Of a stretch of 63,113 bases of DNA, positions 44,135-62,228 are shown in pieces (position 1 is the stretch's first letter; every line of letters begins with the position of its first letter). Source of the stretch: an uncultured Hyphomicrobiales bacterium (GTDB lineage Bacteria > Pseudomonadota > Alphaproteobacteria > Rhizobiales > Rhizobiaceae); NCBI GenBank assembly GCA_963922635.1, contig CAWUJX010000001.1, forward strand, positions 1 to 63,113, read 5' to 3'. The position numbers and the translations under genes were made by a program. The notes beneath the pieces are model-generated. The model was not told where the DNA came from. It saw nothing but the letters and a program-made list of their open reading frames with translations, and searched no databases.

Positions 44135-44180
44135 TGGTAGCGGGAGAGGGACTTGAACCCCCGACACGCGGATTATGATC
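44135..44180 (-). other. 3' half of a tRNA gene (CAT anticodon loop to CCA): att-type remnant at the island border
   Basis: The minus strand reads ATCATAATCCGCGTGTCGGGGGTTCAAGTCCCTCTCCCGCTACCA. That covers the anticodon loop (CAT), 3' anticodon stem, variable loop, T-arm GGGGG-TTCAAGT-CCCTC, acceptor 3' strand and CCA. No matching 5' acceptor or D-arm follows, so this is not an intact tRNA. Confidence 0.75.
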
Positions 44181-44310: not shown

Positions 44311-45345
44311 ATGAGCCTAAAGCCACTAACTGATCTAACTATCCAAAAGCTATCCGTTCCGGAGAGCGGACAGCGGGTTGTCTATGAACCTTCCGGTCTT
44401 GGTGTGCGGGTTTCACAAGGCGGAACAAAATCATTTGTCATTCAACTTGGAGATCGTCGCAAACGCAAGACGCTTGGCAGATACCCGCGTATGAGTCTCA
44501 AGGAGGCCCGTGCTGCCGCCTTACAGCTACGAAACGATCACGACCCCACGTATGAAGATAAACCATCCTCTGTGGTCATTGATGCGTATCTGGAAGCCTG
44601 TTCATATAAGAACACGCCAAAGACTGTGACGGGTTATCGAAAGATACTCCGTACCTATTTCCCAAAGGGTAACATCCAATCGATTGATCGAAAGCGATTG
44701 GTTTCTGTTCTGCGTGATTTAAGTGACCGTCCCGGACAACAGCACCATGTCACAGCCATGTTCCAGATTTTCATGAACTGGTGCGTGAACAATGGCTATG
44801 TCGATTACAACCCAATCGCGGGTTTGAAAAACCAAGGCCGCAAAGGAGTGCGTGACCGCATACTGGATGATCACGAGCTGAAAGCCATCTGGAATGCTCT
44901 ACCGGAAGATCGATACGGCACATACGTGAAACTGCTAATCCTGACTGGCCAGCGGCGCGGGGAAATCCCCTTCATTAGGATAAGTGGCGATACCGCTCAC
45001 ATTGACGGTGCGCATACCAAGAACCGCCGCAGTCATTCCTTTCCAGTTGGTCCATTGACGAAAGAACATTTTGAACCTGTAACATGGAATGGTTGGGGTA
45101 AATCAAAACGGCGGCTGGAAGAAGAAACAGGGGTGGTCAGTTGGACCTATCACGACCTCCGACGCACCTTCGCTAGCAATCATGCGCGGCTAGGAACTCA
45201 AATTCATGTAATCGAGAAAATGCTCAACCATGTATCCGGAAAAATCTCTGGCGTGGCCGCAGTCTATAATCGATACAGCTACATGGATGAAATGCGCGAG
45301 GCTTGTTTGAAATATGAGGATTGGCTAGAAGTTATCATTAAATAA
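44311..45345 (+). CDS. tyrosine integrase, P4-like (N-terminal arm-binding DUF4102-type domain)
   Basis: LTDLTIQKLSVPESGQRVVYEPSGLGVRVSQGGTKSFVIQ N-domain. Catalytic R (GQRRGE), HDLRRTF, LNH and Y (YNRYSY). Confidence 0.9.
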   Translation: MSLKPLTDLTIQKLSVPESGQRVVYEPSGLGVRVSQGGTKSFVIQLGDRRKRKTLGRYPRMSLKEARAAALQLRNDHDPTYEDKPSSVVIDAYLEACSYKNTPKTVTGYRKILRTYFPKGNIQSIDRKRLVSVLRDLSDRPGQQHHVTAMFQIFMNWCVNNGYVDYNPIAGLKNQGRKGVRDRILDDHELKAIWNALPEDRYGTYVKLLILTGQRRGEIPFIRISGDTAHIDGAHTKNRRSHSFPVGPLTKEHFEPVTWNGWGKSKRRLEEETGVVSWTYHDLRRTFASNHARLGTQIHVIEKMLNHVSGKISGVAAVYNRYSYMDEMREACLKYEDWLEVIIK

Positions 45346-45401: not shown

Positions 45402-46901
45402 TTACTCCTGTTTGATTGCAGCAGGCCGATAGTCGAAAAACTTATTGTAATTTGCAAATCTCTTTAGACTGTTACAATAGTCGACCTCCCCTGCGAAACT
45501 GACCAACTCAAGATAGCCCTCGCTGATTGGCTGAAAACCGCTCTTGTCAACAGGAACAAAAACTGGCTCAAGGGCAATTTCGTTCTCTCTGGATATTTGA
45601 CCTGCAACCAGCGAAACTGTGCTTTCAGCCAGCGGTTGATCAGTCTCTGTGTAGGGTGTCACAGGCTCCGAACCGTCAATTTCAACAAATGCAACGTTGC
45701 CTACAGGTGGCCACCTAAAACCATCCAATATAGGTTCAAAATCAAAGCCGGTACCCAACCATAACTCAGATGCAGTTAAAAAGTTTACTCGTGCTGGCCT
45801 TCCCATTAGATAGGAACCACTAAGTGATATCAAACAATCTTCGCATTCAAACCAACCAACAATTGAATTCCTAAAATTGAGCTTGAAATTACCCGTCAAT
45901 TCTAAGCGTCCTATGTAAACGTCGCTTATATTAACTTCCGTTCCATCGGGGATTGCATCCTTCTCGGAGAGCGCGATTAATGCTGATAAAGCGATTATTG
46001 GATTGTCATCCTTTAGCAAAGGAATCAATGAAGCGATGACATTGTTACCAATTTCAGGCGACCTGATGAGGTCAACAATAGCAAATATTTCAGAAGTTGT
46101 GCCTACCTCCTTCAGAGGTTGTTCCCTTCCTTCAAGCCAACATTCACGACCTGCACCACGAATGTTACTAAGTCCAGCGGACCTGTCCGGTATCGTTGAA
46201 GAGCCTCCTAATCTGTTTCGCAGTTCCGAGACCATAGATAAGGCCAAAAGTGCATTCTGTTTGGAGAACTGGGCAGTTTGTTCGCTTATCTTTTTATTCT
46301 GTTCAAATAGTAAGACCGATCCGGTAAATGTGCCAAAAGCCAAGAGAATTGCTGCACAAGTTCCAATCACCCAGCGATAAAAACCCGTCCAAGCATACCA
46401 GCTTACCGCTGACTTAACTGCTTCAGTTGCATGCCCGATTGCTTTTTCTCTATTTCCAGTCGAAGCATCTTCTACGGCATTAATTGTTGAATGGGCTATT
46501 GTTTCCAACGATCCTTCCGTCTGTCCAAGCAAAGAACTTAAAATTCGATCGCGGAAGAACAATACAATGACTAGTAGTAAAACGAGGACAGAAGCTGCAC
46601 CAAATGCGACTGCAGCCAAATCAAGAGCTCTATTTTCAGCGACACCCCAAACTCCTATAGCTATTGGCACAATTGTGAAAACCGCTACAAAAAACCCCGT
46701 CCAAAAAAATTGATGTTTTTGCAAATTACACCCTGAAAAACTTTGTACTAAAGCCAGTATAAAGAATAATCTGTTTAAGGTAAGTCTTTGCTGGCACCGA
46801 ATACAAATCAATTCTGAATTGCAAACATTATTGTGAAATGATGCACTATGGCTAACTTGCCAATATCGGGATTTCTGAATAGCCTTGAAGAGCTTAGGCA
46901 T
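45402..46901 (-). CDS. membrane protein, function unknown
   Basis: 499-aa ORF with an ATG start. It has 3-4 N-terminal TM helices (FFVAVFTIVPIAIGVWGV, LAAVAFGAASVLVLLLVIVLFF, VIGTCAAILLAFGTFTGSVLLF), then about 300 aa of soluble region with no motif I recognise. Confidence 0.55.
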   Translation of the reverse strand: MPKLFKAIQKSRYWQVSHSASFHNNVCNSELICIRCQQRLTLNRLFFILALVQSFSGCNLQKHQFFWTGFFVAVFTIVPIAIGVWGVAENRALDLAAVAFGAASVLVLLLVIVLFFRDRILSSLLGQTEGSLETIAHSTINAVEDASTGNREKAIGHATEAVKSAVSWYAWTGFYRWVIGTCAAILLAFGTFTGSVLLFEQNKKISEQTAQFSKQNALLALSMVSELRNRLGGSSTIPDRSAGLSNIRGAGRECWLEGREQPLKEVGTTSEIFAIVDLIRSPEIGNNVIASLIPLLKDDNPIIALSALIALSEKDAIPDGTEVNISDVYIGRLELTGNFKLNFRNSIVGWFECEDCLISLSGSYLMGRPARVNFLTASELWLGTGFDFEPILDGFRWPPVGNVAFVEIDGSEPVTPYTETDQPLAESTVSLVAGQISRENEIALEPVFVPVDKSGFQPISEGYLELVSFAGEVDYCNSLKRFANYNKFFDYRPAAIKQE

Positions 46902-47137: not shown

Positions 47138-47165
47138 CTCGTGACTACTCCGGTGACGGAGTTAA

Positions 47166-47194
47166 AGGGGCGATCTTCGGATCGCCTCTTCTTT
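47166..47194. terminator. bidirectional terminator hairpin (10-bp stem, TTCG loop) between alpA-like gene and the convergent HEPN operon
   Basis: AGGGGCGATC-TTCG-GATCGCCTCT is followed by TCTTT and preceded by TTAAA. Confidence 0.75.
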
Positions 47195-47227: not shown

Positions 47228-48130
47228 CTAATAGGCGCATGTCAAACATACATCATCTTCATACAAAACATTGCCCTTACAATCGGGCGTATCACATTTA
47301 ACTCGTTTAACCGCAAAAGATTTGTCACAGATAAAGCAATATAAGTTTGTTGAAGTTGGCGATTTGGGTTTCAAAACTGCCAGACGTGTTTCAAACCCAG
47401 CGTCCCTGTTTGCAATTGAAAGACACTGCGGACAAGAATATCGTCTTTGCTTTTTATCAATATGAAAATACTTTTTCACTTTAGCGGGTTTTAGTAAGTT
47501 GATCGCGGCCTCCATCTCCCAACAAACCGTATTACGTGTAAATTCATAAGCTCCAAGATGCGCTACCGGCATTCTGTCCAAGAATTCGCTTCTATCTGTA
47601 GGCCAGTGATTTTGAGGAAATAGCTCAGAGTGCATCTCCAAAATCAACTCAACTAACTGAGATGGGCCGATTGATACATCTTGTGCAGTCGAGTGGGTTA
47701 TCTTGTTCCTCATTTTTCTTATCTCTTCAAACTTGGAACGGAATGTATCGGATAATTCCTTATTAGTGAAAGTCGAGATCATTCTTATTAGATCTTGAGC
47801 ATCTACAGATTTGAAGTCACTAAAAAGTATATTTCCTTCTGCACTAATGCCGGAGAATTTTGCTGTTGTGTCTTGTATCAATAAATATGGTGTTACTTCA
47901 GCAATATAACCCTTGAGTGATAGCTCGACACCTTGCTGCATTATCGTGGCTGCCGTGAGCAAAATTCTACGCGATGCAGACCAGTACTCATCCTCGGTCT
48001 CTTTGTCATACTCATTATAGCCATCAGAGATTGTCGTCATAAGATTTGCGACTTGATCCCAAGCCAATTGCAAATGGTCTAGGCCTACGTCCAAAAAATC
48101 TCGATGACTTGGAATATCTGATACAGCCAT
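47228..48130 (-). CDS. HEPN-like (Rx4H) protein with C-terminal multi-cysteine zinc ribbon
   Basis: FEEIRKMRNKITHS contains R-N-K-I-T-H, the Rx4-6H HEPN signature with Asn after Arg, and there is an upstream helix QQGVELSLKGYI. The C-terminus carries CPQC, CFIC, CDTPDC and CLTC. Confidence 0.6.
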   Translation of the reverse strand: MAVSDIPSHRDFLDVGLDHLQLAWDQVANLMTTISDGYNEYDKETEDEYWSASRRILLTAATIMQQGVELSLKGYIAEVTPYLLIQDTTAKFSGISAEGNILFSDFKSVDAQDLIRMISTFTNKELSDTFRSKFEEIRKMRNKITHSTAQDVSIGPSQLVELILEMHSELFPQNHWPTDRSEFLDRMPVAHLGAYEFTRNTVCWEMEAAINLLKPAKVKKYFHIDKKQRRYSCPQCLSIANRDAGFETRLAVLKPKSPTSTNLYCFICDKSFAVKRVKCDTPDCKGNVLYEDDVCLTCAY

Positions 48131-48144
48131 GATGGTACCATTGA

Positions 48145-49236
48145 TTACCTTTGATTGTCGTTGCCATCTTCTAGTAGTTTGATTGCTTCGCGCTCTTCTT
48201 GATAATCGCTGATAATCCGACGCACTCGATTAAGTTCTGCCAACGCGTCGTCATCAATTTTTACTTCTGAATTCTCTTCTTCATCATCATCAGATTTAGG
48301 TGGAGCAACAAAGTCAACGTCTCCGCCATTCTCACCAAATTTGACGAGTTTATCTATGGACTTCTCAAGAGCATTTTTAACATCCCCTCTTGCATTTTTG
48401 GGGATTTGGTCAGCCAGTTCCTTGTAAATAGCATCAAGTCCCTCCTGTCGCCGTTTGTTTTCCATCTCAGCAAGCTCGTTCTCCATTACCTCTGTGAGAA
48501 GTCTTTTCTGACGAAGTTCTTCGCGCGTAATCTGAACAGACATGACTTCTTTAGCCATACCAGTAAGATGCTTGCAGATCAGAGCTAGCAATGCAGACAC
48601 CGCCGCTGTTGCTGAAAGAACCAAAATAATCGATCCATTCGATGTGCCAATAACGCGGGTATCTTCGGGAGCCTCACCGACAAGCATCCCCAAACCACGT
48701 ACTATGTGAAACCAATCTTCAGCAGAAGTCTTCCAGTCCTTTATGTCATTAATTGCAGCCTCGTTTCTAAAACCGACACGCACCGTAATCCGATCCTCAG
48801 CAGTTTCAAACGTATCGACTTTTATTCCCATTTCACTTACAGCTGAGCTATATGCTGTTAGTTGGTTATGAACATTATTTATCTTGGTCACCGCATCCTG
48901 AATTGCATTCAAAGTAGTGGCAGGATCGTAGGTAGTTGTAATTACAGTTTCCCGTACATAATCAACGCCGTCATACCCGATTAGATTAGACACTCCTTGC
49001 TGCCCTAAGAAACGTAACTGTTGAAGGTTCAATTCGCCAACTTTCATCGCAGAAAGGAAATCTAACAATTCGTTTAGCGGTTCTTCCAGTGGCTGCGTGG
49101 CTCCCTGATTAATATTATTTTGCAACACCCTTTGGAGAGCTTGGTATTTTGCTGCCAACTGACTGTGGTTCAAATCAAACCAGTTCGATAATTCAAGAAG
49201 CTCCAACACGTTCATTTTTACGATCCAATCATACAA
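48145..49236 (-). CDS. single-pass membrane / coiled-coil protein with acidic tail, function unknown
   Basis: The ORF-track start at 49236 is TTG; the first ATG is at 49215. Central TM helix GSIILVLSATAAVSALLALICKHL, then coiled coil (ITREELRQKRLLTEVMENELAEMENKRRQEG) and the acidic stretch SDDDEEENSE. Confidence 0.6.
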   Translation of the reverse strand: MYDWIVKMNVLELLELSNWFDLNHSQLAAKYQALQRVLQNNINQGATQPLEEPLNELLDFLSAMKVGELNLQQLRFLGQQGVSNLIGYDGVDYVRETVITTTYDPATTLNAIQDAVTKINNVHNQLTAYSSAVSEMGIKVDTFETAEDRITVRVGFRNEAAINDIKDWKTSAEDWFHIVRGLGMLVGEAPEDTRVIGTSNGSIILVLSATAAVSALLALICKHLTGMAKEVMSVQITREELRQKRLLTEVMENELAEMENKRRQEGLDAIYKELADQIPKNARGDVKNALEKSIDKLVKFGENGGDVDFVAPPKSDDDEEENSEVKIDDDALAELNRVRRIISDYQEEREAIKLLEDGNDNQR

Positions 49237-49242
49237 TCACTA

Positions 49243-49276
49243 CTACACACACAGTATGTGTACGCCGTGTGTGTAG
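49243..49276. repeat. 10-bp perfect inverted repeat CTACACACAC-N14-GTGTGTGTAG in a divergent promoter region
   Basis: Read directly from the sequence. It begins 7 nt upstream of the TTG 49236 start, or 28 nt from ATG 49215. Confidence 0.7.
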
Positions 49277-49494
49277 CCGTTCCATCGTATTGCGGTTCAT
49301 GTAACTCTAAAGTCAGACAACGGTACCCACGACTCCATACTATATTCCTTGTCCTATGAATTAAGAACAAGAAATATTGAATTCCCCAATATGCCCAATG
49401 CTCTTCCTAATCGAATGCTTACACAGTCGATATCAAACAATGTTTTGACATCTATTCGTATTTTTCATTCTATTACTTCATCCATTTTATTTTT

Positions 49495-49884
49495 GTGTGG
49501 GAGGAAACATTGAGAGTAGAAATCAAACACAGCGAACAATCAAAAGGGATGATTAGCAAAACCACGTTCTTTCGAACGGACTTCAATTTCATTTTCTCGG
49601 AAGAAGAAAAAGGGATCATCGCTGAAGCTGATCTGGGTCCATATACATTTCTGGAACGCGAGCCACCTTTTGACAGCAAAGACTATGGTGAACCCGACAA
49701 AGCCTATGAATATGAAGTGACGCTCCGAAAGTTGCTCAATGATGGCGGGTTTCATCATGCCTCGCCAAGCCGCCGACAAGCATGGGATTTCACCAGAAAC
49801 GTCAAAGAGCAACTTCCAACCTTGAAAGCTGTCTTGGACAAATACGCAGGCATAGCACTGGAGAACGAAAGCATCGAACTCTAG
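49495..49884 (+). CDS. hypothetical protein
   Basis: 129-aa ORF with a GTG start; an alternative ATG at 49549 gives MISKTTFF. It has no recognisable motif and is the first gene of a same-strand cluster. Confidence 0.5.
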   Translation: MWEETLRVEIKHSEQSKGMISKTTFFRTDFNFIFSEEEKGIIAEADLGPYTFLEREPPFDSKDYGEPDKAYEYEVTLRKLLNDGGFHHASPSRRQAWDFTRNVKEQLPTLKAVLDKYAGIALENESIEL

Positions 49885-49895
49885 GCAGCGGCTAG

Positions 49896-51965
49896 ATGGA
49901 AAACCTCTTCTTCATTGTACTGCTGGCGGTCGTTTGCGTCTTCGTTCTGTTTCGTCTTTTTCCTTCGCTGGGCAAAACTCGAAAAGAGAAAATAGAAGAT
50001 GAGTTCGTTGAACGCACTCATGCGCTCTACAAACAGGCCTGCCAAATTGATGCCTTTGATACCGATGCTTTCATAAAGATTGCCAATGCAACCTTTGAAG
50101 ATGGCAAAGTGAGAGCGGCGGCTCTGGAGTTATTTGCAAGAGAAGAAGTCGCCAAACCTGATCCACCACCGGAGATCGTGACTGGCATAGAAGGCGGGAG
50201 GTATCGCGACTATCTCGAACGCTACATCAACCAAGGTCAGGATGATGAACGAAACAATGTCTTAGTTGGTTCGCTCTGTCATGTATTGGAACCGCTCGAC
50301 CGTATTTGGGATGATGATGGTATCTTCAATGCCAGACAACGCATAACCCGTGAAGAGGTTGTGACTCTGATGGCTCGTACTTTTGAAGTCGAGCCACGCT
50401 TTGAAAGCACAAGGCAACAATTACTTGCGAATCTCATGGAGAATGGTGGGAAGAATGCGCTTCAATATCGGGACGATGATTATCCATACGCTTATCTGAA
50501 AAATACCCCACTTGAGAAACTCGAATACCGTGCCACGATGGTTCCTTGGAATAATCGGGAAGCTCATACATTGGTCCTTGGCGGTTCTGGCTCCGGCAAG
50601 ACCACCCTGTTCAAACATCTGATTGCCAAGCTTCTGGAAGAAGACTGTTGTGTGGTGGTGATGGATAGCCAGAGCCAGGTCATCGAAGAACTGGCTCATC
50701 TCAAGCTGAATGAAAGCGATGTTACATGGCTTTCACCTGAAAACGCCCTGGCACTCAATCCGTTTGATATCGATCCGAAAGACCAAAGAGATGAGACTGT
50801 CATCAATAACAAGATTTCGCTTTTGGAGTTCGTCGTTGAAAACCTGATCGAAGCACCCATGACACCGCGCCAGAAGAACCTCTTCTACTTCTGCACCCAG
50901 TTGGTACTGGCGATACCGGGCGGGAACGTGAAGACGTTCAAGGAAGTTCTGAAAGACCCGTTTGTCTATTCTGACACGATAGAAACACTGGATGAAACCG
51001 CACGGGATTTCTTCTTCAAGGAACTGAAAGAGCAAAGTGGTAATCGCAAAGGCAACAGCTACGACAGCACCCGACAGGAGCTGGCCTATCGTCTGGATGG
51101 TTTAACCAAACAACCTACGTTTCGCCGGATATTTCAGACGAAGGAAAACACCTTTGATTTCTTCGATGAAATGCAAAAGCGAAAACTCATTCTTTTGGAT
51201 ACCAGTCAATCACTGCTCGCTGATGATAGTCCAACCCTTGGCCGCTTCTTGATCGCCAATGCACTGCAAGCCTGTTTTCAACGGGTACACAAGAAGCAGA
51301 TGGATCGTCCAGTCTATTTCTTTGTTGATGAAGCACATGAGTATTTTGATGAGAAACTGGAGCGGATGCTGCTGCAAGCGCGCAAAGCAAATGTAGGCAT
51401 GGTGCTGGCCACACAGGATTTAAGTCGGGCCACTAAAGCAGGGATTGCCGATACCCTGATTGGGTCAACCTCTACTCAGATTGTAAGCAAGGTAATTGCA
51501 GGTGATGCCAAGCGGTTGGCACCTGCCATGAAAACCAATGCCGAGTTTATAACCGATCTATCTGATCACACTTTTGGATATTTCAGTGGGCAAGATATCG
51601 TATCAATCCAAGTGAACGGCGACCCGCTTTCGCAAGTTGCTAAACGTGGCGATCTTAATTCGCTGAAGCGCAGTATAGAATTTCGATATGGCCCAAAACC
51701 GGAAATGCCAACGTTTGATCCTAAGCCAAATGCAGATACGGAAAGCGTAAATTCAGAACCGACTGTTGAGGACACCTCTACGTCTTCCGAACAAAACCGA
51801 GCTGAGGAAAACAAGCCGCCTGTTGCAAAGCAAAAGCCAGACAAACCAATCCAGCAAAAACCTCAGAAATCGCAGCCGAAACCAAAAGCGCATAATAAGC
51901 CAAAGCAAAAACCACCTATGATCCAAAATGAGGTTCAAGACATCGAACCGGGTGACCAGTTATAA
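49896..51965 (+). CDS. membrane-anchored P-loop ATPase, FtsK/TraD(T4CP)/HerA-like
   Basis: N-terminal TM helix (LFFIVLLAVVCVFVLFRLF), Walker A LVLGGSGSGKTT, Walker B YFFVDEAHEYF and ARKANVGMVLATQDLSR. The roughly 90-aa C-terminal tail is P/K/Q-rich and low complexity. Confidence 0.75.
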   Translation: MENLFFIVLLAVVCVFVLFRLFPSLGKTRKEKIEDEFVERTHALYKQACQIDAFDTDAFIKIANATFEDGKVRAAALELFAREEVAKPDPPPEIVTGIEGGRYRDYLERYINQGQDDERNNVLVGSLCHVLEPLDRIWDDDGIFNARQRITREEVVTLMARTFEVEPRFESTRQQLLANLMENGGKNALQYRDDDYPYAYLKNTPLEKLEYRATMVPWNNREAHTLVLGGSGSGKTTLFKHLIAKLLEEDCCVVVMDSQSQVIEELAHLKLNESDVTWLSPENALALNPFDIDPKDQRDETVINNKISLLEFVVENLIEAPMTPRQKNLFYFCTQLVLAIPGGNVKTFKEVLKDPFVYSDTIETLDETARDFFFKELKEQSGNRKGNSYDSTRQELAYRLDGLTKQPTFRRIFQTKENTFDFFDEMQKRKLILLDTSQSLLADDSPTLGRFLIANALQACFQRVHKKQMDRPVYFFVDEAHEYFDEKLERMLLQARKANVGMVLATQDLSRATKAGIADTLIGSTSTQIVSKVIAGDAKRLAPAMKTNAEFITDLSDHTFGYFSGQDIVSIQVNGDPLSQVAKRGDLNSLKRSIEFRYGPKPEMPTFDPKPNADTESVNSEPTVEDTSTSSEQNRAEENKPPVAKQKPDKPIQQKPQKSQPKPKAHNKPKQKPPMIQNEVQDIEPGDQL

Positions 51966-51973
51966 ACTGGTGA

Positions 51974-52915
51974 ATGAAGAGACAAGACCGCTTGGGTCGT
52001 CGGTTGTTCACGACACACACCGAGAATCCTATTCCAGATTACAAACCTAATGAACGGCAGCTGCAATGGATGCAATTTCTGAACCTGCATGGCTTTGCTT
52101 CATCACTCTATTTGCACGAATACACGGCAGATACTCATCGGTGTCCGCAAACCAGCAAACGGATGTTACGCAAGCTCTTTGATGGACAGATGATCTATCG
52201 TCCACGCCAGCAACGTGAAACCGAAAACGCCGATGGCAACTATCACGTTTATGCACTCACTAAAGCCGGGATTAATTATCTGAAAGAAGAGGGATTATGG
52301 TTAGAGGCGCATAAACCAACTGGTGGGTGGGTTCATCAATACATGGTTTCTTGTATCACGGCATCCATTCACATCCTCTGCAACCGTGAGGGGTATCATT
52401 ATATTCCCGGTCATGAGATTACACCGTCATTAACAGCTGAAGCACAGTTCACATGGGGCAGCAAGGAATACAGCTACAACATCATTCCAGATGCGCTCTT
52501 TGCCATTCAATATCCCACTGGATACGTCGCCTATGCGCTCGAAGCTGATCGTGGAACTGAACCAAATGACACTGCATCACCTTATCGAAAATCCATCCGC
52601 CGCAACATCAAGCAATATGCATACTTGGTTGGCAATCAAGCATACAAATCTGCGTACCGTCTGAATTGTCCTTTGATCGTTCTCAACGTGATGGTGTCTA
52701 AGCGCAAAGTGGAAAATGCTTTGACCATCATCCAAAAGGAAGTAGGTGACTGCCCTTATTTGGCATTTGGATTGGCACCAGAATTCAAAACACCTTTTAA
52801 ACCCCCAGCCAAATTATTGGAAAGTCTCTTTATTGAACCCTTGCATCGCTCAGGATTAAAGCCTTGGACGATTAAGCAAGTCCAAAAGAAAAGTTGGTTT
52901 CGTTACAAAAAGTGA
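51974..52915 (+). CDS. replication-relaxation family-like protein (wHTH + PD-(D/E)xK-like core)
   Basis: IIPDALFAIQYP....YALEADRGTE matches my recollection of the pDa...lEvDrgTe core of Replic_Relax proteins. The assignment is from memory, not a search. Confidence 0.5.
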   Translation: MKRQDRLGRRLFTTHTENPIPDYKPNERQLQWMQFLNLHGFASSLYLHEYTADTHRCPQTSKRMLRKLFDGQMIYRPRQQRETENADGNYHVYALTKAGINYLKEEGLWLEAHKPTGGWVHQYMVSCITASIHILCNREGYHYIPGHEITPSLTAEAQFTWGSKEYSYNIIPDALFAIQYPTGYVAYALEADRGTEPNDTASPYRKSIRRNIKQYAYLVGNQAYKSAYRLNCPLIVLNVMVSKRKVENALTIIQKEVGDCPYLAFGLAPEFKTPFKPPAKLLESLFIEPLHRSGLKPWTIKQVQKKSWFRYKK

Positions 52916-55141: not shown

Positions 55142-55166
55142 TGAACAGAATTGGCCATTATGTTCA
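55142..55166. repeat. right copy of the 25-bp inverted repeat (TGAACAGAATTGGCCATTATGTTCA), overlapping the recombinase start
   Basis: See the left copy. The 118 bp between the copies (55024-55141) are non-coding. Confidence 0.9.
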
Positions 55167-55756
55167 GTCCAAAAATCAAACCATTCAAAAACCCCGGCTT
55201 CAGCCTCTACACCAAAGATGGTCAGCCGAAATATCTCAACCAATCGGAACGACAACGGTTCATAGAGTGTGCTGATCAATGTGAACGGTCTATTCGTTTG
55301 TTATGCCTCACATTGCTATTTAGCGGCTGCCGGTTATCAGAAGCCCTGAACCTCACGAAAGAGAGTGTTCTTACACCAGAGCAAGCCTTATCAATACGAT
55401 CCCTCAAGAAACGGAAAGCAGTAAGCTTCCGCCAAATACCAATACCCAAAAATCTAGTTCATGAATTATCAAGCCTTGGCCAAGAACGACCAAGCAGCCT
55501 GTTTGTATGGAAACGAACCCGAGCACTGCACTACGTGAAAATAGTAATGCGCATGGCGGATATAAATGGAGTTCGAGGAACAGCCCGTGGCTTACGCCAC
55601 ACATTTGGAGCGCATGGTATCCATTGCGGTATTCCAGTTACTCTACTTCAACGTTGGTATGGGCATTCCAAACTAGAAATGACAGCGATCTACACACAAA
55701 TCCTAGGGCCAGAAGAACGAGAGATTGCTAAGAAGATGTGGGAAACAAATCGATGA
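55160..55756 (+). CDS. small tyrosine recombinase (catalytic domain only, FimB/FimE-size)
   Basis: About 198 aa. Catalytic R (SGCRLSEALNL), RHTFGAH, WYGH and Y (AIYTQ). ATG 55160; the ORF-track TTG is at 55151. Confidence 0.8.
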   Translation: MFSPKIKPFKNPGFSLYTKDGQPKYLNQSERQRFIECADQCERSIRLLCLTLLFSGCRLSEALNLTKESVLTPEQALSIRSLKKRKAVSFRQIPIPKNLVHELSSLGQERPSSLFVWKRTRALHYVKIVMRMADINGVRGTARGLRHTFGAHGIHCGIPVTLLQRWYGHSKLEMTAIYTQILGPEEREIAKKMWETNR

Positions 55757-56682: not shown

Positions 56683-56770
56683 TAACCCCTCCCCTGTGTA
56701 GACTATATCTAAGCACTGGAAACCAATGAACTCAACTGTTGAGGTGTCCAGTCCGCGATGGGAGGTGAAA

Positions 56771-59185
56771 ATGGTCCGCGTAAAAACTCTTTGTCTGCTG
56801 CTCCTCTCCATAATTGTCGCGAGTATGTTAACGCACTCTGCTAGTGCGTTCGGCCTTACTATCCATAAACCGTCAATCCTGAAGAGCGTCGATTGCGCTG
56901 AAATCGGCTGTGTTCACCAAGTTCTTACGGAAGCTGAACGGCAACGAAAACTTAAGGCCGTTCAACGTGAGATACAAAGACGACAGCGTGCCGCTGAGCG
57001 CGAATTACGAAAGAGACAGCAAGCGCAGAGAGATGCTGAACGTCGTAAGCAACAAGCAATTGCTCGACAGCAGGAACGCGAACGTCAGAGACGGATTCAA
57101 GAAGTTCAACGTGAGATCGAAAGACGCGAACAGCAGCAGGCAAAGGCAGCCGAGCGGGACCGCCAGCGAAAGCTAAGCGTAGTACGAAAAGAATTAGCTA
57201 AGCGCCAGCAGCAAGAAAAAGAGCGTCAGCTAAGAGCCGCTGAACGTGAATTGGCGAAACGCCGCCAACAAGAAGCGGAACGACAACGACAGGCTCAACA
57301 GCGAATTGAGCAACTGAACCAAAGAGAACGTGAAAAGTTACTCAGGGATGCTCAGCGCGAGATCGCTAAGCGCCAGCAACAGGAAAAGGAACGTCAACTT
57401 CGAGCGGCGGAACGTGAGCTAGCGAAGCGTCATCAGCAAGAAGCAGAACGTCAGAGGCAAGCGCAAAAACGAATTGAACAATTAAATCAGAAACAGCGTG
57501 AAAGGCTTCTAAGAGACGCACAACGCGAGCTAGCCAAACGACAACAGCAAGAGCAAAAAAGACAGGCTCAACAGCGAATTGAGCAACTGAGCCAAAGAGA
57601 ACGTGAAGAGTTGCTCAGGGATGCTCAGCGCGAAATCGCCAAACGACAGAGAGGTGCTCATAAGCCAAATAACGATGCAAGTAATAAAACACAACGACAA
57701 TTGCGCGAGCTACAAGAGAAAGAACGCTTGCGTAAACTAAGCGCTGCGCGGAAAGAGCTGGCAAAAAGGCAACGTGATCTTGAAGCCGCAAAACGCGCTC
57801 AACAAACCGACAAAAACATTGCGGGATCCAGAAAGAGACTTGAGCAACTAGCCCGTCAGGCCCAACAAGAGCTAGCAAATGGCCAGAACGCTAAAGCGCA
57901 TGAAACGTTAAGAAAAGCCAAGCGGGAAAAGCAACGCATCATTGATCTCAGAAACCGAAACCGGGAACTAGAGCATCAACAAAGGCTTATTCAGCAGGCT
58001 CTGCAGCAACAAGACCAGACAAAGAACAGGCAACAGACTGTCAATCGATTGCGCTCAGCCAATCAGAAGTTTCGTGAGCAGAGCAGAAACGCACAAATTG
58101 CTGAAGCCCAACGGGAACTAGAAAACTCAAACAAAAGTGTCCGCAAATATGCAACCGCATACATCAACGCTACACGTTCAGGCGACAAAGAAGCCGCAAA
58201 AGCAGCTCACGCAAAATACTTGGAAGCCAAAAACCGCAAGGACGCCCTTGAGCAGCTAAATAGGACGTTACAGTCAGGTAAGAAAATTAGACCGATAGCC
58301 GACCCAGACACCCAAGTAGCTAAGGTTCCTAACTCGGAGAACAGCGGCGGACAAACTGGCCAAAGTCTCAGGATCTTGAACCAACCTACCACATCCAACG
58401 AAAAACGGCGAACTACCTCGTCAAACTCGCCGAGTAGTATTTGGAGACCAGTACCCGGAAAACAGGGAGTGGAGTACATTGTAGACCCAACCGATGGAAA
58501 AGTGATCTATCGAGCAAACGAGTTCGCGTCCCGAAAAGATAAAGCGCTAATCCAACTAAGAAATCTAGCACCCGGATATGTCGAGCTTTCGAATGATATG
58601 GCGGAACGGGGCAAAGGGGTATCAAAGAGTGCAGCACACGGTTTGGCGACTCTTGGAAATCAAGTTCAACGCGGAGCTCAATCGCTTTATGATCCCAATG
58701 CCGCTGCTAAAGCAGAACAACGACAGCAGACAATTGATCAGTACCTAAAGCCGAGCGGCAAGCTTCAAGAGCAAGGTGAGGTTCTTGGTTATGCTCTACC
58801 GGCAGGTGGTGCAGCAAAAGGAGCATCCGCGCTTACCAGGCTGAGGCAATTTATTAAACCAAGCGCAAGAAGTATTGCAGCTAGGACCATTAATCTGAAC
58901 CCACGGCAGATTCAGAAAAAATACAACGATCACGCTTTTCAGTTTGGTATCCACGGAAATTACAACAGCGGAAATGCACAGAAATTTGCTTCTGCAATCG
59001 CAAAGCATGTAAAGTCACAGTCAACTAGGGAAATCGCGGGCACATTTAGGAAACAACCTGTGATACACTACATCAATCCGACAACCGGGTTAAATGTAAT
59101 GACTGACCGATCAGGCAATTACATCTCTGGATGGCAACTTAGTCCATCGCAAGTTGAAAATGTCGTTAAGCGCGGTTCCCTGTAG
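56771..59185 (+). CDS. Sec-signal protein with long R/Q/E coiled-coil repeats and a C-terminal toxin-like domain
   Basis: GGAGG RBS before ATG 56771. Signal peptide MVRVKTLCLLLLSIIVASMLTHSASA. About 450 aa are RELAKRQQQE-type coiled coil. The last roughly 110 aa (QKKYNDHAFQFGIHGNY...VIHYINPTTGLNVMTDRSGNYISGWQLS) resemble the KHxxxFG...G-rich pattern of colicin-D-type/polymorphic toxin C-terminal domains (memory-based). Confidence 0.6.
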   Translation: MVRVKTLCLLLLSIIVASMLTHSASAFGLTIHKPSILKSVDCAEIGCVHQVLTEAERQRKLKAVQREIQRRQRAAERELRKRQQAQRDAERRKQQAIARQQERERQRRIQEVQREIERREQQQAKAAERDRQRKLSVVRKELAKRQQQEKERQLRAAERELAKRRQQEAERQRQAQQRIEQLNQREREKLLRDAQREIAKRQQQEKERQLRAAERELAKRHQQEAERQRQAQKRIEQLNQKQRERLLRDAQRELAKRQQQEQKRQAQQRIEQLSQREREELLRDAQREIAKRQRGAHKPNNDASNKTQRQLRELQEKERLRKLSAARKELAKRQRDLEAAKRAQQTDKNIAGSRKRLEQLARQAQQELANGQNAKAHETLRKAKREKQRIIDLRNRNRELEHQQRLIQQALQQQDQTKNRQQTVNRLRSANQKFREQSRNAQIAEAQRELENSNKSVRKYATAYINATRSGDKEAAKAAHAKYLEAKNRKDALEQLNRTLQSGKKIRPIADPDTQVAKVPNSENSGGQTGQSLRILNQPTTSNEKRRTTSSNSPSSIWRPVPGKQGVEYIVDPTDGKVIYRANEFASRKDKALIQLRNLAPGYVELSNDMAERGKGVSKSAAHGLATLGNQVQRGAQSLYDPNAAAKAEQRQQTIDQYLKPSGKLQEQGEVLGYALPAGGAAKGASALTRLRQFIKPSARSIAARTINLNPRQIQKKYNDHAFQFGIHGNYNSGNAQKFASAIAKHVKSQSTREIAGTFRKQPVIHYINPTTGLNVMTDRSGNYISGWQLSPSQVENVVKRGSL
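57197..57637 (+). repeat. 168-bp (56-aa) in-frame tandem repeat: two full units plus a 105-bp third unit
   Basis: Units start at 57197, 57365 and 57533. The third unit is nearly identical at DNA level to the 3' part of the first (CAGGCTCAACAGCGAATTGAGCAACTGA...GGGATGCTCAGCGCGA). Confidence 0.85.
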
Positions 59186-59475: not shown

Positions 59476-60636
59476 TCAAGTTAATGTACAGGCCGAAAAC
59501 GGCTTGGTTTGTACATCATCAATCATCATTTTCACAAACATCTGGTAGTTGGGCAAGTTCACAAGATCACGTGAAGTTGGAACATCTGCGCCGAATTGCT
59601 TTGCCAAAATCGGCGCATCAGCTGCACCTATGCGAAATGAAATCAGTGTTCCTACATTTCCCCAAATAGCTTGCATGACATCAGGGGCAATCGCTGCTGT
59701 ATGTTGTGCTGTCATACACAGATACAGACCATACTTCCGTAGCTCTGCCAGCATATCTGCGAATGATGAACTGGTGAAAGAGGAAAACTCATCAACTATC
59801 AAACTATAAGCTCGTCGCTGTTTAAGCGGAAGATTTTCTCTGCTCATAGCGGCAGCTGACATACTGGACACCACCAAACCACCCAGCACATTGCTGATGT
59901 CTGCGCCCAGTTTTCCTTTGGCAAGATTGATAATAAGTGTCTGACCTTCATCCATCATTTTACGAAACCGTAGAGGCTTTTCTGGATTGCAGATTTTCTT
60001 TCGCACTACTGGATTGGAAAGAAACGAATTGAGCTTGTTGCTAACAGGACTTACGCCGTCAGCGGCTGTGGTGAATTTCAGCTTCTCAAATTCCAGCTTC
60101 CAGAAAGATTTTACATAGTCATCCGCAACATACTGCAAGGCTTTTTGACGAAAGGTTTTATCAAGGAATAAGGGCATGACATCCTGCATGGATGAGTTTG
60201 GGCGAGCTAGTAGTGTTAGGAAAGCCGCCCGCATAAGGCTCTCCATACGCGGACCCCAAGCATCGCTCCAAAGCTTCTTCAGCGTATCAATCAAACCGGA
60301 CGCAACAAGCGACCGATGCTCTTCACTGACATAGGTGAGCGGATTGTAACCATACGGACAATTGGGATTGGCCGGCTCCCAGAAAACGCAATCGTCACCC
60401 GAAATTTGTTGAACTGACTTTGCTAAATCACCATGCGGATCAAGAAGACAAAACCCTCTACCATTCTGGAGGTCTTGTTTCATCAATTGAAGCAGCCAAG
60501 TCGATTTACCCGTCCCGGTTTGGCCAAAACAGGCCATGTGGAACTGGCGATCTTTATATCTGATACCGAATGGTTTCACTGGTGGTCGCCCGTGGGTTTG
60601 GCCAAGTTTAGTAATCACCCCATTGATATGCTTCAT
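59476..60636 (-). CDS. soluble P-loop ATPase, TraD(T4CP)/HerA-DUF87-like
   Basis: Walker A CFGQTGTGKST, LLDPHGD, Walker B SLIVDEFSSF and ELRKYGLYLCMTAQH. The start overlaps the serine recombinase stop by 4 nt. Confidence 0.7.
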   Translation of the reverse strand: MKHINGVITKLGQTHGRPPVKPFGIRYKDRQFHMACFGQTGTGKSTWLLQLMKQDLQNGRGFCLLDPHGDLAKSVQQISGDDCVFWEPANPNCPYGYNPLTYVSEEHRSLVASGLIDTLKKLWSDAWGPRMESLMRAAFLTLLARPNSSMQDVMPLFLDKTFRQKALQYVADDYVKSFWKLEFEKLKFTTAADGVSPVSNKLNSFLSNPVVRKKICNPEKPLRFRKMMDEGQTLIINLAKGKLGADISNVLGGLVVSSMSAAAMSRENLPLKQRRAYSLIVDEFSSFTSSSFADMLAELRKYGLYLCMTAQHTAAIAPDVMQAIWGNVGTLISFRIGAADAPILAKQFGADVPTSRDLVNLPNYQMFVKMMIDDVQTKPFSACTLT

Positions 60637-62228
60637 AAGTGCAAGGGATTACTCTCAGACACACCTTCCTTTGTTGAACGCGTCAATCTCGGCTCATCCA
60701 ATCCCAACTGCTCAAGTCGCTCGATTTCTGGCGACGTGGCAAGTTGCGCAAGCAGATTGACCTGATCATCGATACTGGCAGAAGTTCGAGAACTTGCACG
60801 AGCATCTGCACACCTAAGGATGGCCATTGAATCCTGAGCCGCCTGAAGCCAATTTGATGGCTCAACAAAAATGTTTTTGGCCGACACGCTTCGGTTCGAG
60901 GTCGCCAATTCAACGATTTCTCGTTTTTCCTCTGAATTCCCGTTTTGGTAGTATTCTGCAAGGTTTTTCAGACGTTCGAGAAACTGGCGTATGTAACTTG
61001 GACTTAGCTGATCTTGGGCAATTTTCTTCAGCGATCCTTCCAGCTCTGATCGTTCCAGAAGCAATGCATTTTTGCGCTTTAGAAAGCTCTCACGGTCAAT
61101 GATCTGATCAATCACAGCGTCTTCCAGTTTCTCCAATCGTTCTGCAAGTTTGGATATTTGAAGCTTGATAGAGGCAATCGTTTTCTCAACGGAACGGTTA
61201 TTTGTAAGCGCAGCGACCTTCTTTTCAATCAGCGCAATCACATAATCAGGCAATTTGATTGCTTTGAGGATGCTGTGGATGGCACTGTCCAATTCTTCCT
61301 CGCGAATGCTGTTTCCGGCACATTCAGGAAAGTGACAACGGTAATAACAATGCCCCTTCTGGAGTTCAGGGATCATGGATCGACCACACTGTTTGCAGGC
61401 AAATAGGCCACGGAATAAATGATTGTGCCGGGTGAACTTCTTGCTCTTGCGGTCAGAACGCAAAGCCTGAACACGCTCAAATGTGGCCGTGCTAATCAAC
61501 GGCTCATGCGCACCTTTGTAAGTTTCACCTGTAGTCTTGATACGAATAATGCCTGCGTAAAACGGGTTACCAAGAAACGCTTCAAAGCACCCGCGTGAAC
61601 GGGGTCTTCCATTGGGCTGTTTGAAACCGCGCTTTGCCATTTCCACCCGCAAAGTCTCAAACGAATATTGCCCACTGGCGTACAACTCGAATGATCGTTT
61701 AATGAGTGGGCCAATGACTGGATCAATCGTTTTCAGTTGCTTCTTGCCGTTGTTCAAATAGCCGATTGGAGCGGAGAATGGATAATAGCCACGTTCTAAT
61801 TGCCCACGCTGCCCTTTATGAATTTCTGCCTTTAAGTTGCGAACGTAGTCCTCAGCCACAGCCATTTGAATATTGGCGGTCAGACGACCACCGCGAGACT
61901 GAAAGTCCAGACTCTCAGTAGCAAAGTGAATTTCTACGCCACTGTCGGCTAGTTCACCAACCTTCGCCCAGTCAAAGAAGTTTCGTGCAGAACGGTCGAT
62001 CTTGTGCATGACCACACCATCTGCCTTGCCGGATTTGAGGGCTTTGGTGAGTTCAGCAAACACCGGACGACCCTTCTTGGCTGCCGTTTGTGTTTCCTCA
62101 AACCACTTGCTGATTTTAATGTTGTTTCGCTCAGCGAAGTTACTGATTTCATCTTTCTGAGCATCCAGCGAGATACCCTCGCCCTGCTTTTGGGTGGACA
62201 CCCGCACATAGCCAAAACACTGCTTCAT
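60633..62228 (-). CDS. large serine recombinase
   Basis: Resolvase N-domain CFGYVRVSTQKQ with catalytic Ser, then a recombinase domain, a zinc ribbon (CKQCGRSM...CYYRCHFPEC) and a long coiled-coil C-terminal part. 531 aa. Confidence 0.9.
   Translation of the reverse strand: MKQCFGYVRVSTQKQGEGISLDAQKDEISNFAERNNIKISKWFEETQTAAKKGRPVFAELTKALKSGKADGVVMHKIDRSARNFFDWAKVGELADSGVEIHFATESLDFQSRGGRLTANIQMAVAEDYVRNLKAEIHKGQRGQLERGYYPFSAPIGYLNNGKKQLKTIDPVIGPLIKRSFELYASGQYSFETLRVEMAKRGFKQPNGRPRSRGCFEAFLGNPFYAGIIRIKTTGETYKGAHEPLISTATFERVQALRSDRKSKKFTRHNHLFRGLFACKQCGRSMIPELQKGHCYYRCHFPECAGNSIREEELDSAIHSILKAIKLPDYVIALIEKKVAALTNNRSVEKTIASIKLQISKLAERLEKLEDAVIDQIIDRESFLKRKNALLLERSELEGSLKKIAQDQLSPSYIRQFLERLKNLAEYYQNGNSEEKREIVELATSNRSVSAKNIFVEPSNWLQAAQDSMAILRCADARASSRTSASIDDQVNLLAQLATSPEIERLEQLGLDEPRLTRSTKEGVSESNPLHL

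Follow-up and report, generated by a model that had tools for sequence, protein, structure and literature searches.

The closest described relative of the gene analysed here is HEC-08 (Hma-embedded candidate 08; PADLOC PDLC04162), a single-gene anti-phage defence that combines a HEPN domain with zinc fingers, is represented by WP_001313577.1 of E. coli ECOR52, and loses protection when H128 is replaced by alanine (H128A) (Payne et al., bioRxiv 10.1101/2024.01.29.577857). RAZR (ring-activated zinc-finger RNase; PD-T7-4) is likewise monogenic, with a Cys4 zinc domain and a HEPN RNase; the zinc domain determines which trigger is recognised, and on oligomerisation the protein starts to cleave RNA non-specifically, with abortive infection as the outcome (PMC13017515). 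Ishtar (ist1/ist2) comprises monogenic HEPN proteins directed against plasmids (bioRxiv 10.64898/2026.07.06.735840), and the EC042_2821/DUF3644 and Abi2/Swt1 HEPN proteins are predicted active RNases that are fused to zinc ribbons and occur in restriction-modification or defence contexts (Anantharaman et al. 2013, PMC3710099). The hallmarks of HEPN domains are an Rx4-6H motif with a polar residue (N, D or H) after the arginine and a conserved acidic site, typically E-x3-[KR], in core helix 2 (PMC3710099).

Here we compare with these systems a two-gene locus in a window of 63,113 nucleotides, the whole stretch of DNA that was analysed, from an uncultured Hyphomicrobiales bacterium. An earlier note, made from the sequence alone, had proposed the two genes as an undescribed defence pair of a membrane coiled-coil protein and a HEPN protein. 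We favour another reading, to which we give a probability of roughly 60%: the gene at 47228–48130 would be a self-contained cytoplasmic HEPN/zinc immune or conflict effector, a short sister of HEC-08 acting as a single gene, and the partner gene would be separate. The locus and its surroundings contain the following features.

47228–48130, minus strand: gene for the HEPN-type, double zinc-ribbon protein, 300 aa from an ATG (ORF call)
48145–49215, minus strand: neighbouring (partner) gene, 356 aa from an ATG (ORF call and starts of homologues)
about 47165–47190, no strand assigned: GC-rich hairpin in the interval that separates the HEPN gene from the AlpA-like gene (folding energy)
49216–49494, no strand assigned: divergent intergenic region upstream of the partner gene (interval between ORFs)
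44311–45345, plus strand: tyrosine integrase of the island that bears both genes (Pfam Arm-DNA-bind_3 and Phage_integrase)
44135–about 44180, minus strand: 3' tRNA fragment with T-arm, acceptor and CCA, beside the integrase (read from the sequence)

Both ORFs were confirmed on the minus strand with 14 nt from stop to start (48131–48144), just as had been described. The partner ORF was at first called from a TTG at 49236 (48145–49236), and because all homologues begin at the ATG at 49215, this is most likely its true start, which gives 356 aa. Neither a terminator nor a promoter-like site was found between the two genes, and they are probably co-transcribed in this island because the gap is only 14 nt. 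The transcript is presumed to start from the intergenic region at 49216–49494, where a scan for the sigma-70 consensus returned no matching site. What had been taken for a strong bidirectional terminator is a real hairpin of -20.6 kcal/mol on the plus strand (z -3.1), but on the strand of the HEPN and partner genes it is weaker (-17.4 kcal/mol, z -1.9), with a short U tract, and the consensus terminator scan did not call it; it is probably a terminator that mainly serves the plus-strand gene.

Both genes are cargo of an island with an integrase, AlpA, a T4 coupling protein (T4CP) and a relaxase, and the HEPN gene is carried on an integrative mobilisable element. The GC content of the island is 0.445, against 0.504 for the core, and both genes lie in its low-GC cargo part. 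The island had been described as bordered by tRNA, and the fragment at 44135–44180, which occurs once in the window, reads as the remnant of an att site that marks the left end; ARAGORN and Rfam detected no tRNA over the window, and the fragment is not a complete one.

The evidence for the nature of the 300-aa protein comes from its motifs, a structural model and profile comparisons, and its principal elements are listed here.

47606–47998, minus strand: HEPN-like helical core, about residues 45–175 (AF2 secondary structure and weak profile matches)
47912–47926, minus strand: E69-x3-K73, upstream acidic/basic motif of HEPN helix 2 (invariant in 34 homologues)
47693–47710, minus strand: R141-N142-K-I-T-H146, Rx4H motif, predicted catalytic, closing helix 128–146 (R141, N142 and H146 invariant)
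47237–47434, minus strand: zinc module at the C-terminus, built on four invariant Cys pairs (alignment and AF2 model)

The stretches FEEIRKMRNKITHS and QQGVELSLKGYI and the four Cys pairs (C233/236, C265/268, C279/284 and C295/298) were all found in the 300-aa protein, as was the R-N-x3-H motif that had been read in it. In an alignment of 34 homologues, E69, K73, R138, R141, N142, H146 and all eight cysteines are invariant, and because this holds at identities down to 33%, the HEPN and Cys motifs are, judged from the alignment, far beyond chance. In R141-N142-K-I-T-H146 the polar N142 directly follows the arginine, and E69-x3-K73 falls within a helix of the AF2 model (residues 54–79), so that both HEPN hallmarks are present. 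The model (pLDDT 90, pTM 0.88) has core helices at 54–79, 128–146 and 156–170 with an insert at 80–127; the Rx4H motif ends a helix and is followed by a loop and a further helix, the long helix before it holds E-x3-K, and this order of elements fits the one described for HEPN (PMC3710099). The upstream motif is where it had been seen, but its helix corresponds better to core helix 2 than to HEPN helix 1. The double zinc ribbon that had been suggested is borne out by the invariance of all eight cysteines and by their collinearity with pairs of HEC-08, and the module is predicted to form two zinc sites on short beta-strands. The protein has no hydrophobic segment (maximum Kyte-Doolittle value 0.89) and is predicted to be cytoplasmic.

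Searches of Pfam, NCBIfam, PADLOC and PHROGs matched neither protein of the locus above any curated threshold. Below threshold, the 300-aa protein resembled the Pfam families HEPN_RiboL-PSP, Apea, Swt1 and Cthe2314 (E 0.02–0.06, all under the gathering score) and the PADLOC model DUF3644 (E 2.7e-4); these weak matches converge on residues 103–166, and DUF3644 is matched by 20 of the 34 family members (E<0.01). Foldseek with the full-length HEPN model returned no HEPN structure from the PDB (best E 0.69) or BFVD, and sequence-profile searches of the PDB, with this family and with the HEC-08 family, gave just weak zinc-ribbon and zinc-finger matches. By profile comparison, hhalign aligned the 300-aa family with the HEC-08 family at 96.2% probability (E 2.6e-9) over 218 columns, collinear through the two HEPN motifs and each of the four Cys pairs, and gave just 0.4% in a control against Ishtar HEPN proteins. 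The PADLOC HEC-08 model itself detected 19 of the 34 members at E<0.01, the best at 4.1e-8 and 30.7 bits, collinear over residues 50–303 of member P0062; the window protein scored E 0.0039 and 14.3 bits, which is not a significant score, and BLASTP matched only 45 of its residues to the tested HEC-08 protein. The invariant motifs, the AF2 model and the HEC-08 profile alignment support two readings of the earlier note: that the 300-aa product is of the HEPN type, and that its C-terminus forms a double zinc-binding module.

The pairing of the two genes fared differently. By tblastn, the partner is absent from all 65 loci with HEPN homologues, it is missing among the called genes of two more close HEPN relatives, and the HEPN gene is absent from all 12 partner loci, which represent six distinct contexts. 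Because the genes never co-occur elsewhere (0/65 and 0/12), the reading as a pair fails: they are not a conserved pair, and the partner is an unrelated orphan that is adjacent only in this mobile island. Co-occurrence in other genomes was the check on which the proposed pair had been staked beforehand, and none was found. Nor do HEPN homologues have a conserved adjacent partner or antitoxin of the kind seen in two-gene HEPN or toxin–antitoxin systems (e.g. HepT/MntA). A lineage-specific two-component system, in which the membrane coiled-coil protein would sense envelope or injection events and release or activate the HEPN RNase, would account for the uninterrupted 14-nt gap on one strand and for the position of both genes in the low-GC cargo of a single island, and membrane-associated HEPN proteins are known (PMC3710099). 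We nonetheless regard it as highly unlikely, given this lack of co-occurrence and given that none of the six nearest HEPN relatives for which context is available (58–64% identity) has the partner, that the closest partner relative (65% identity) is without the HEPN gene, that in the closest relatives compared the sequences are alike only as far as the gene borders, and that the partner is mostly alphaproteobacterial whereas the HEPN family spans many phyla. The operon-like spacing makes a local functional link possible. A recent joining in one operon of an orphan membrane coiled-coil protein with a HEC-08-like HEPN RNase, the membrane sensor gating the cytoplasmic RNase, is the reading to which we give least credence of all; if true, we would be seeing a two-component abortive-infection system that has only just been assembled, at the point of its origin.

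In the single-gene reading that we prefer, the partner needs a description of its own, and its layout is largely the one proposed for it: an N-terminal helical domain, one hydrophobic helix, long charged helices and an acidic run (DDDEEE). The hydrophobic part is placed as follows.

48565–48633, minus strand: hydrophobic segment of the partner, residues 195–217, candidate single transmembrane helix (Kyte-Doolittle)

Its one hydrophobic 19-mer (residues 196–214) has a Kyte-Doolittle value of 2.64, with a mean of 2.1 over the family alignment, and part of the segment takes the form of a beta-hairpin and a helix in the AF2 model. The partner was assigned to no family in Pfam, PADLOC, NCBIfam or PHROGs, and its AF2 model had no significant fold match in the PDB (Foldseek). 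Matches to DUF7799 (E 4e-4, below threshold, in one of 27 members) and to Csn2 were judged to be noise from helical, charged sequence and were rejected. The family, which occurs alone in six other contexts, is a true orphan with a conserved motif, F-x-E-x-G-G-x-V-D-F-V-A-P-P, of which G-G-x-V-D-F-V-A-P-P is part. We take the partner to be a separate single-gene cassette, a candidate membrane-associated protein, that happens to lie 14 nt upstream in this island.

Homologues of the 300-aa protein fall into 111 clusters, and a larger set holds 843 representatives at 50% identity; the family carries no annotation beyond 'hypothetical protein'. No conserved neighbour of at least 70 aa within 4 kb and no conserved small ORF or antitoxin within 500 bp was found at the 57–65 loci of HEPN homologues, and with the partner absent as well, the genomic picture is that of a single gene. 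In other genomes its neighbours are, among others, PifA, PARIS AriA, AbiLi, Kiwa, HEC-01, PDC-S21 and a pPIWI-associated nuclease, a defence neighbourhood that we summarise qualitatively by family counts. Certain members stand among housekeeping genes, such as rfb genes (at locus L001) and tRNA synthetases, and no fold match confirms the RNase, which would suit a housekeeping or regulatory protein that binds or processes RNA, or a catalytically silent HEPN protein, with no role in conflict. We think this decidedly improbable, since the family is patchily spread over at least ten phyla with an insertion site that differs between genomes, defence genes, integrases and IS elements often adjoin its members, the catalytic R, N and H are invariant, and the tested defence protein HEC-08 is a homologue.

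The same mobile surroundings could be read in favour of the element and not of its host. The HEPN zinc-ribbon protein might serve the mobile element as a factor in competition between elements or against plasmids, or as an addiction module, and act on the RNA primers or transcripts of rivals, as proposed for Ishtar. The gene travels on an integrative mobilisable element that has a T4 coupling protein and relaxase, relatives occur in integrase- and IS-rich islands, and monogenic anti-plasmid HEPN proteins exist, all of which points this way; against it, kinship with Ishtar does not extend beyond the catalytic motif, and phages were the target in the assays of HEC-08, its nearest tested relative. 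We consider it unlikely.

For the self-contained effector that we favour, we propose the following course of action. The N-terminal HEPN ribonuclease domain would have its active site at R141, N142 and H146, aided by E69 and K73, and would be joined by a helical linker to the C-terminal module, where the four Cys pairs would bind two zinc ions. By analogy with HEC-08 and RAZR/PD-T7-4, this module most likely keeps the RNase inactive and recognises a trigger derived from the invader. Upon the trigger, the HEPN domains would come together in pairs or oligomers and cleave RNA; translation would halt, and the spread of a phage or other mobile element would be blocked. What is inferred is that the protein cleaves RNA, that its zinc module acts as the sensor, and that it confers defence, a role which, as had been suggested, is plausible. 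With this reading the idea of a new two-gene system turns out to be a false lead, and a testable single-gene one takes its place. PADLOC and Pfam at normal thresholds miss at least 843 clusters over many phyla, and cataloguing the family as defence would improve the annotation of defence islands. The minimal layout of a HEPN domain with two zinc sites could also be a convenient model for the control of HEPN RNases by zinc, a question newly opened by RAZR.

How, then, does the protein compare with the described systems? With the EC042_2821/DUF3644 and Swt1 proteins it shares weak DUF3644 and HEPN_Swt1 matches over the catalytic region, all below threshold, but it has neither the wHTH nor the restriction-endonuclease domains of the EC042_2821 proteins. 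RAZR also unites a zinc domain and a HEPN RNase in one protein, a likeness that is one of mechanistic analogy only: its zinc domain is N-terminal and its HEPN is of the DUF4145 type, whereas the order is reversed in the window protein, with the zinc module at the C-terminus, and PD-T7-4 and DUF4145 (PADLOC, Pfam) gave no match at E<=1. Ishtar is similar in having a stand-alone HEPN domain (DUF3644 or DUF4145), a C-terminal accessory domain, a patchy spread and mobile contexts; the Ishtar homologues inspected are 164–261 aa long and are without conserved paired-Cys modules. A relationship to Ishtar was rejected (E 0.17 in the hhalign control; six accessions of the family absent from Ishtar Table S3).

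The likeness to HEC-08 is closer. Both are single-gene products with an N-terminal DUF3644-type HEPN domain, a helical linker and C-terminal CxxC zinc modules, and the system can hardly be called undescribed when its architecture matches a tested single-gene defence in PADLOC. The motif F-x-x-[IV]-R-K-x-R-N-x3-H is common to both, with R141, N142 and H146 here corresponding to R123-N124-x3-H128 in HEC-08; E69-x3-K73 aligns with E56-x3-K60, and the four Cys pairs match C212/215, C239/242, C253/256 and C271/274 one-to-one. HEC-08 has four further invariant pairs (C304/307, C322/325, C335/338 and C354/357), eight against four here, and the window protein, at 300 aa against 366 aa, is without the C304–C357 extension, has a longer N-terminal helix, and is about 20% identical to HEC-08. 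The listed relatives of HEC-08 are nearly all from Enterobacterales, in contrast to the many phyla of the 300-aa family, and HEC-08 was found embedded in Hma systems, whereas the copy here is on an integrative mobilisable element. On these alignments, the 300-aa family appears to be a short, distant sister family of HEC-08.

The two genes, one for a putative HEPN RNase with a C-terminal zinc module and one for a neighbouring orphan protein (the partner), lie in the cargo part of an island with a GC content of 0.445, against 0.504 in the core. Its tyrosine integrase, AlpA-like regulator, type IV coupling protein and Replic_Relax relaxase make it an integrative mobilisable element. Reading of the ORFs and of the island border in the window gave:

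44135 to ~44180, minus strand: 3' half of a tRNA (GGGGGTTCAAGTCCCTC T-arm, acceptor stem, CCA), found once in the window
47228-48130, minus strand: HEPN gene, 300 aa
48145-49236, minus strand: partner ORF as first called

An earlier note had called the island tRNA-bordered. This holds to the extent that the tRNA fragment sits directly upstream of the integrase gene, but no intact tRNA accompanies it, and ARAGORN and Rfam found no tRNA in the whole window. The fragment is probably an att remnant, namely the island's distal att repeat; in that case an intact tRNA, together with the opposite end of the island, may lie past the contig end.

Several other genes in the window deserve mention. An operon at 49495-52915 (plus strand), encoding a 129-aa orphan ORF, a 689-aa TrwB/TraD-like type IV coupling protein that also matches PADLOC mad8 (7e-18) and the 313-aa Replic_Relax relaxase, shows the island to be an integrative mobilisable element. 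Between the integrase and AlpA-like genes lies a 499-aa orphan cargo ORF (45402-46901, minus strand), with hydrophobic stretches near the N-terminus visible by eye in the translation and no match in Pfam, PADLOC or PHROG. Near the transition from low to normal GC, a 201-aa ORF (55151-55756, plus strand) matches only the catalytic part of Phage_integrase (E 2e-15), and is a second recombinase, probably truncated. An 819-aa ORF (56726-59185, plus strand), unmatched in PADLOC, contains tandem repeats of 168 nt that have diverged (57197-57637) as well as other internal repeats, with a very high local AT skew (0.43); it probably encodes a repetitive coiled-coil protein. Finally, a 386-aa HerA/mad8-like ATPase gene (E 4e-21) immediately downstream of a 531-aa ORF without a match (59476-62228, minus strand) may form with it a second module built on an ATPase, belonging either to the island or to an adjoining element.

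As the earlier note described, the HEPN gene and its partner are minus-strand ORFs 14 nt apart, and the peptides it quoted (FEEIRKMRNKITHS, QQGVELSLKGYI, CPQC, CFIC, CDTPDC and CLTC) are all present in the translation. The partner likely starts at the ATG at 49215, giving 356 aa, because an equivalent M-N/E-V opens 26 of 26 aligned homologues. Of the strong bidirectional terminator proposed beyond the genes, the hairpin (~47165-47190) is real (-20.6 kcal/mol, z -3.1 on the plus strand), but it is weaker on the genes' own strand (z -1.9) and not among the calls of a consensus terminator scan. No sigma-70-like site was found in the divergent intergenic region.

Given the 14-nt gap, the two genes are probably co-transcribed in this island, and the note had proposed them as an undescribed defence pair. 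A homologue scan using one genome per GTDB species recovered 57 loci with a HEPN family member, spanning Alpha-, Beta- and Gammaproteobacteria, Desulfobacterota, Cyanobacteria, Chlorobi, Planctomycetes, Chloroflexi, Spirochaetes, Bacteroidetes, Verrucomicrobia and Acidobacteria. The partner was detected by tblastn in none of the 57, even at E<=10. Clustering of all ORFs >=70 aa within 4 kb revealed no common neighbour except among near-identical Microcystis loci, and no small ORF (25-110 aa, within 500 bp of HEPN homologues) was conserved. The six closest HEPN relatives with context (58-64% identity) are flanked instead by rfb genes, small ORFs, an integrase/HNH/Tle1/patatin island, IS elements or a pPIWI-associated nuclease. 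The partner has 80 homologous clusters of its own, mostly alphaproteobacterial; its homologues occur by themselves in six distinct contexts, one of which adjoins an integrase. Overall, the partner was absent from all 65 HEPN loci and the HEPN gene from all 12 partner loci, and in tblastx comparisons of the closest relatives similarity stops exactly at the borders of each gene. The proposed undescribed pair is not supported, and the two genes are independent single-gene cassettes that have come to lie side by side locally; a real, lineage-specific two-gene system is very improbable.

The partner is an orphan, putative membrane protein unrelated to the HEPN gene. Its AF2 model (moderate confidence, pLDDT 77) comprises a helical domain at the N-terminus, a small alpha/beta unit, a stretch of strong hydrophobicity at residues 195-217 (KD 2.64, hydrophobicity conserved), long charged helices, a disordered acidic run and a helix at the end. 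The charges flanking the hydrophobic segment (-2 ahead of it, +1 behind it) give no clear pointer to its topology. The motif F-x-E-x-G-G-x-V-D-F-V-A-P-P is invariant in the homologue alignment. Searches of Pfam, NCBIfam, PADLOC and PHROGs gave no family, and the PDB no fold match.

The 300-aa protein has 111 homologous 90%-identity clusters, each of ~300 aa and all named 'hypothetical'; a full HMMER scan gave 843 family representatives at 50% identity, 472 with E<1e-30. All eight Cys are invariant in a 34-member alignment (to 33% identity), as are Q65, Q66, E69, K73, R138, R141, N142 and H146. AlphaFold2 models the protein with confidence (pLDDT 90, pTM 0.88):

before the residue 54 helix: long N-terminal helix
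residues 54-79: helix with E69-x3-K73
residues 80-127: insert
residues 128-146: helix ending in R141-N-x3-H146
after helix 128-146: loop, then helix 156-170
C-terminal of helix 156-170: helical linker, then short beta-strands with the Cys pairs

In this predicted structure the order of elements is the HEPN layout, in which a polar residue follows the Arg, the motif closes helix 3 and E-x3-[KR] lies in helix 2 (PMC3710099). Direct database support for the assignment is weak: four Pfam HEPN families match residues 103-166 at sub-threshold E values (0.02-0.06), and neither Foldseek of the whole model against PDB and BFVD nor PDB sequence profiles of the family gave a match.

Among 148 flanking proteins from 45 loci, compared with PADLOC and Pfam, a PifA match (2.8e-116, PADLOC) lies directly upstream of the homologue in Paraburkholderia solisilvae; further strong PADLOC matches include PDC-S21, PARIS AriA, AbiLi, mad3, HEC-01A/B and Kiwa KwaA/KwaB, and Pfam matches include integrases and HEPN/Toprim-associated ATPases. 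This fits a mobile gene often found in defence islands. The flanking proteins also include tRNA synthetases and transporters; an RNA-processing role outside conflict is nonetheless improbable. At one group of homologue loci (L070-L072, ~3.1-12.2 kb in L070 coordinates), a 59%-identity relative lies inside an integrase island that also holds an HNH protein, a Tle1-like lipase, a patatin-like phospholipase and several 433-514-aa orphan ORFs; this island may be a hotspot for cargo or defence genes.

The nearest characterized system is HEC-08, a single gene from E. coli ECOR52 that lowered coliphage plaquing and whose defence was lost on mutation of the Rx4-6H motif (H128A) (Payne et al., bioRxiv 2024.01.29.577857). 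The PADLOC HEC-08 model matches 19 of the 34 aligned family members, best (4.1e-8) a Pseudoalteromonas member collinear over residues 50-303, and DUF3644 matches 20. From the sequence in Table S2 of Payne et al. we gathered the HEC-08 family, found in almost all cases in Enterobacterales, and aligned 28 members. NCBI calls most of these 366-aa HEPN/zinc-finger proteins 'hsdR', which looks like an annotation error spread from their location within restriction or Hma loci. Profile-profile comparison of the two families gave 96.2% probability (E 2.6e-9, 218 columns), aligning V-E-x3-K with HEC-08 V55-E56-x3-K60, R141-N-x3-H146 with R123-N-x3-H128, and the four Cys pairs with C212/215, C239/242, C253/256 and C271/274. 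The 300-aa protein lacks a C-terminal extension in which HEC-08 carries four further invariant Cys pairs, and pairwise the match is restricted to the surroundings of the catalytic helix (29% over 45 aa). The same profile comparison against the anti-plasmid Ishtar HEPN proteins gave 0.4%; an anti-plasmid or competition factor in the service of the element, as in Ishtar, is an unlikely identity for this protein, if less so than RNA processing. On these comparisons the 300-aa protein is a shorter, distant sister of HEC-08, one outside what PADLOC would call as HEC-08.

We favour, at a probability of roughly 0.6, a monogenic HEPN RNase effector whose zinc module would act as an auto-inhibitory or sensor domain, activation leading to RNA cleavage and thence to growth arrest or abortive infection. 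The predicted catalytic assignment draws on the invariant residues and HEC-08 homology; the sensor role is suggested by analogy with the zinc-finger HEPN RNase RAZR/PD-T7-4, in which phage specificity is set by the zinc-finger domain, and non-specific ssRNA cleavage is turned on when the protein assembles on phage ring proteins (PMC13017515). The 300-aa protein appears to be a new, shorter version of known single-gene HEPN plus zinc-finger defence, from a large family overlooked by current annotation tools. This should help annotation and offer a minimal model, though it will not surprise specialists.
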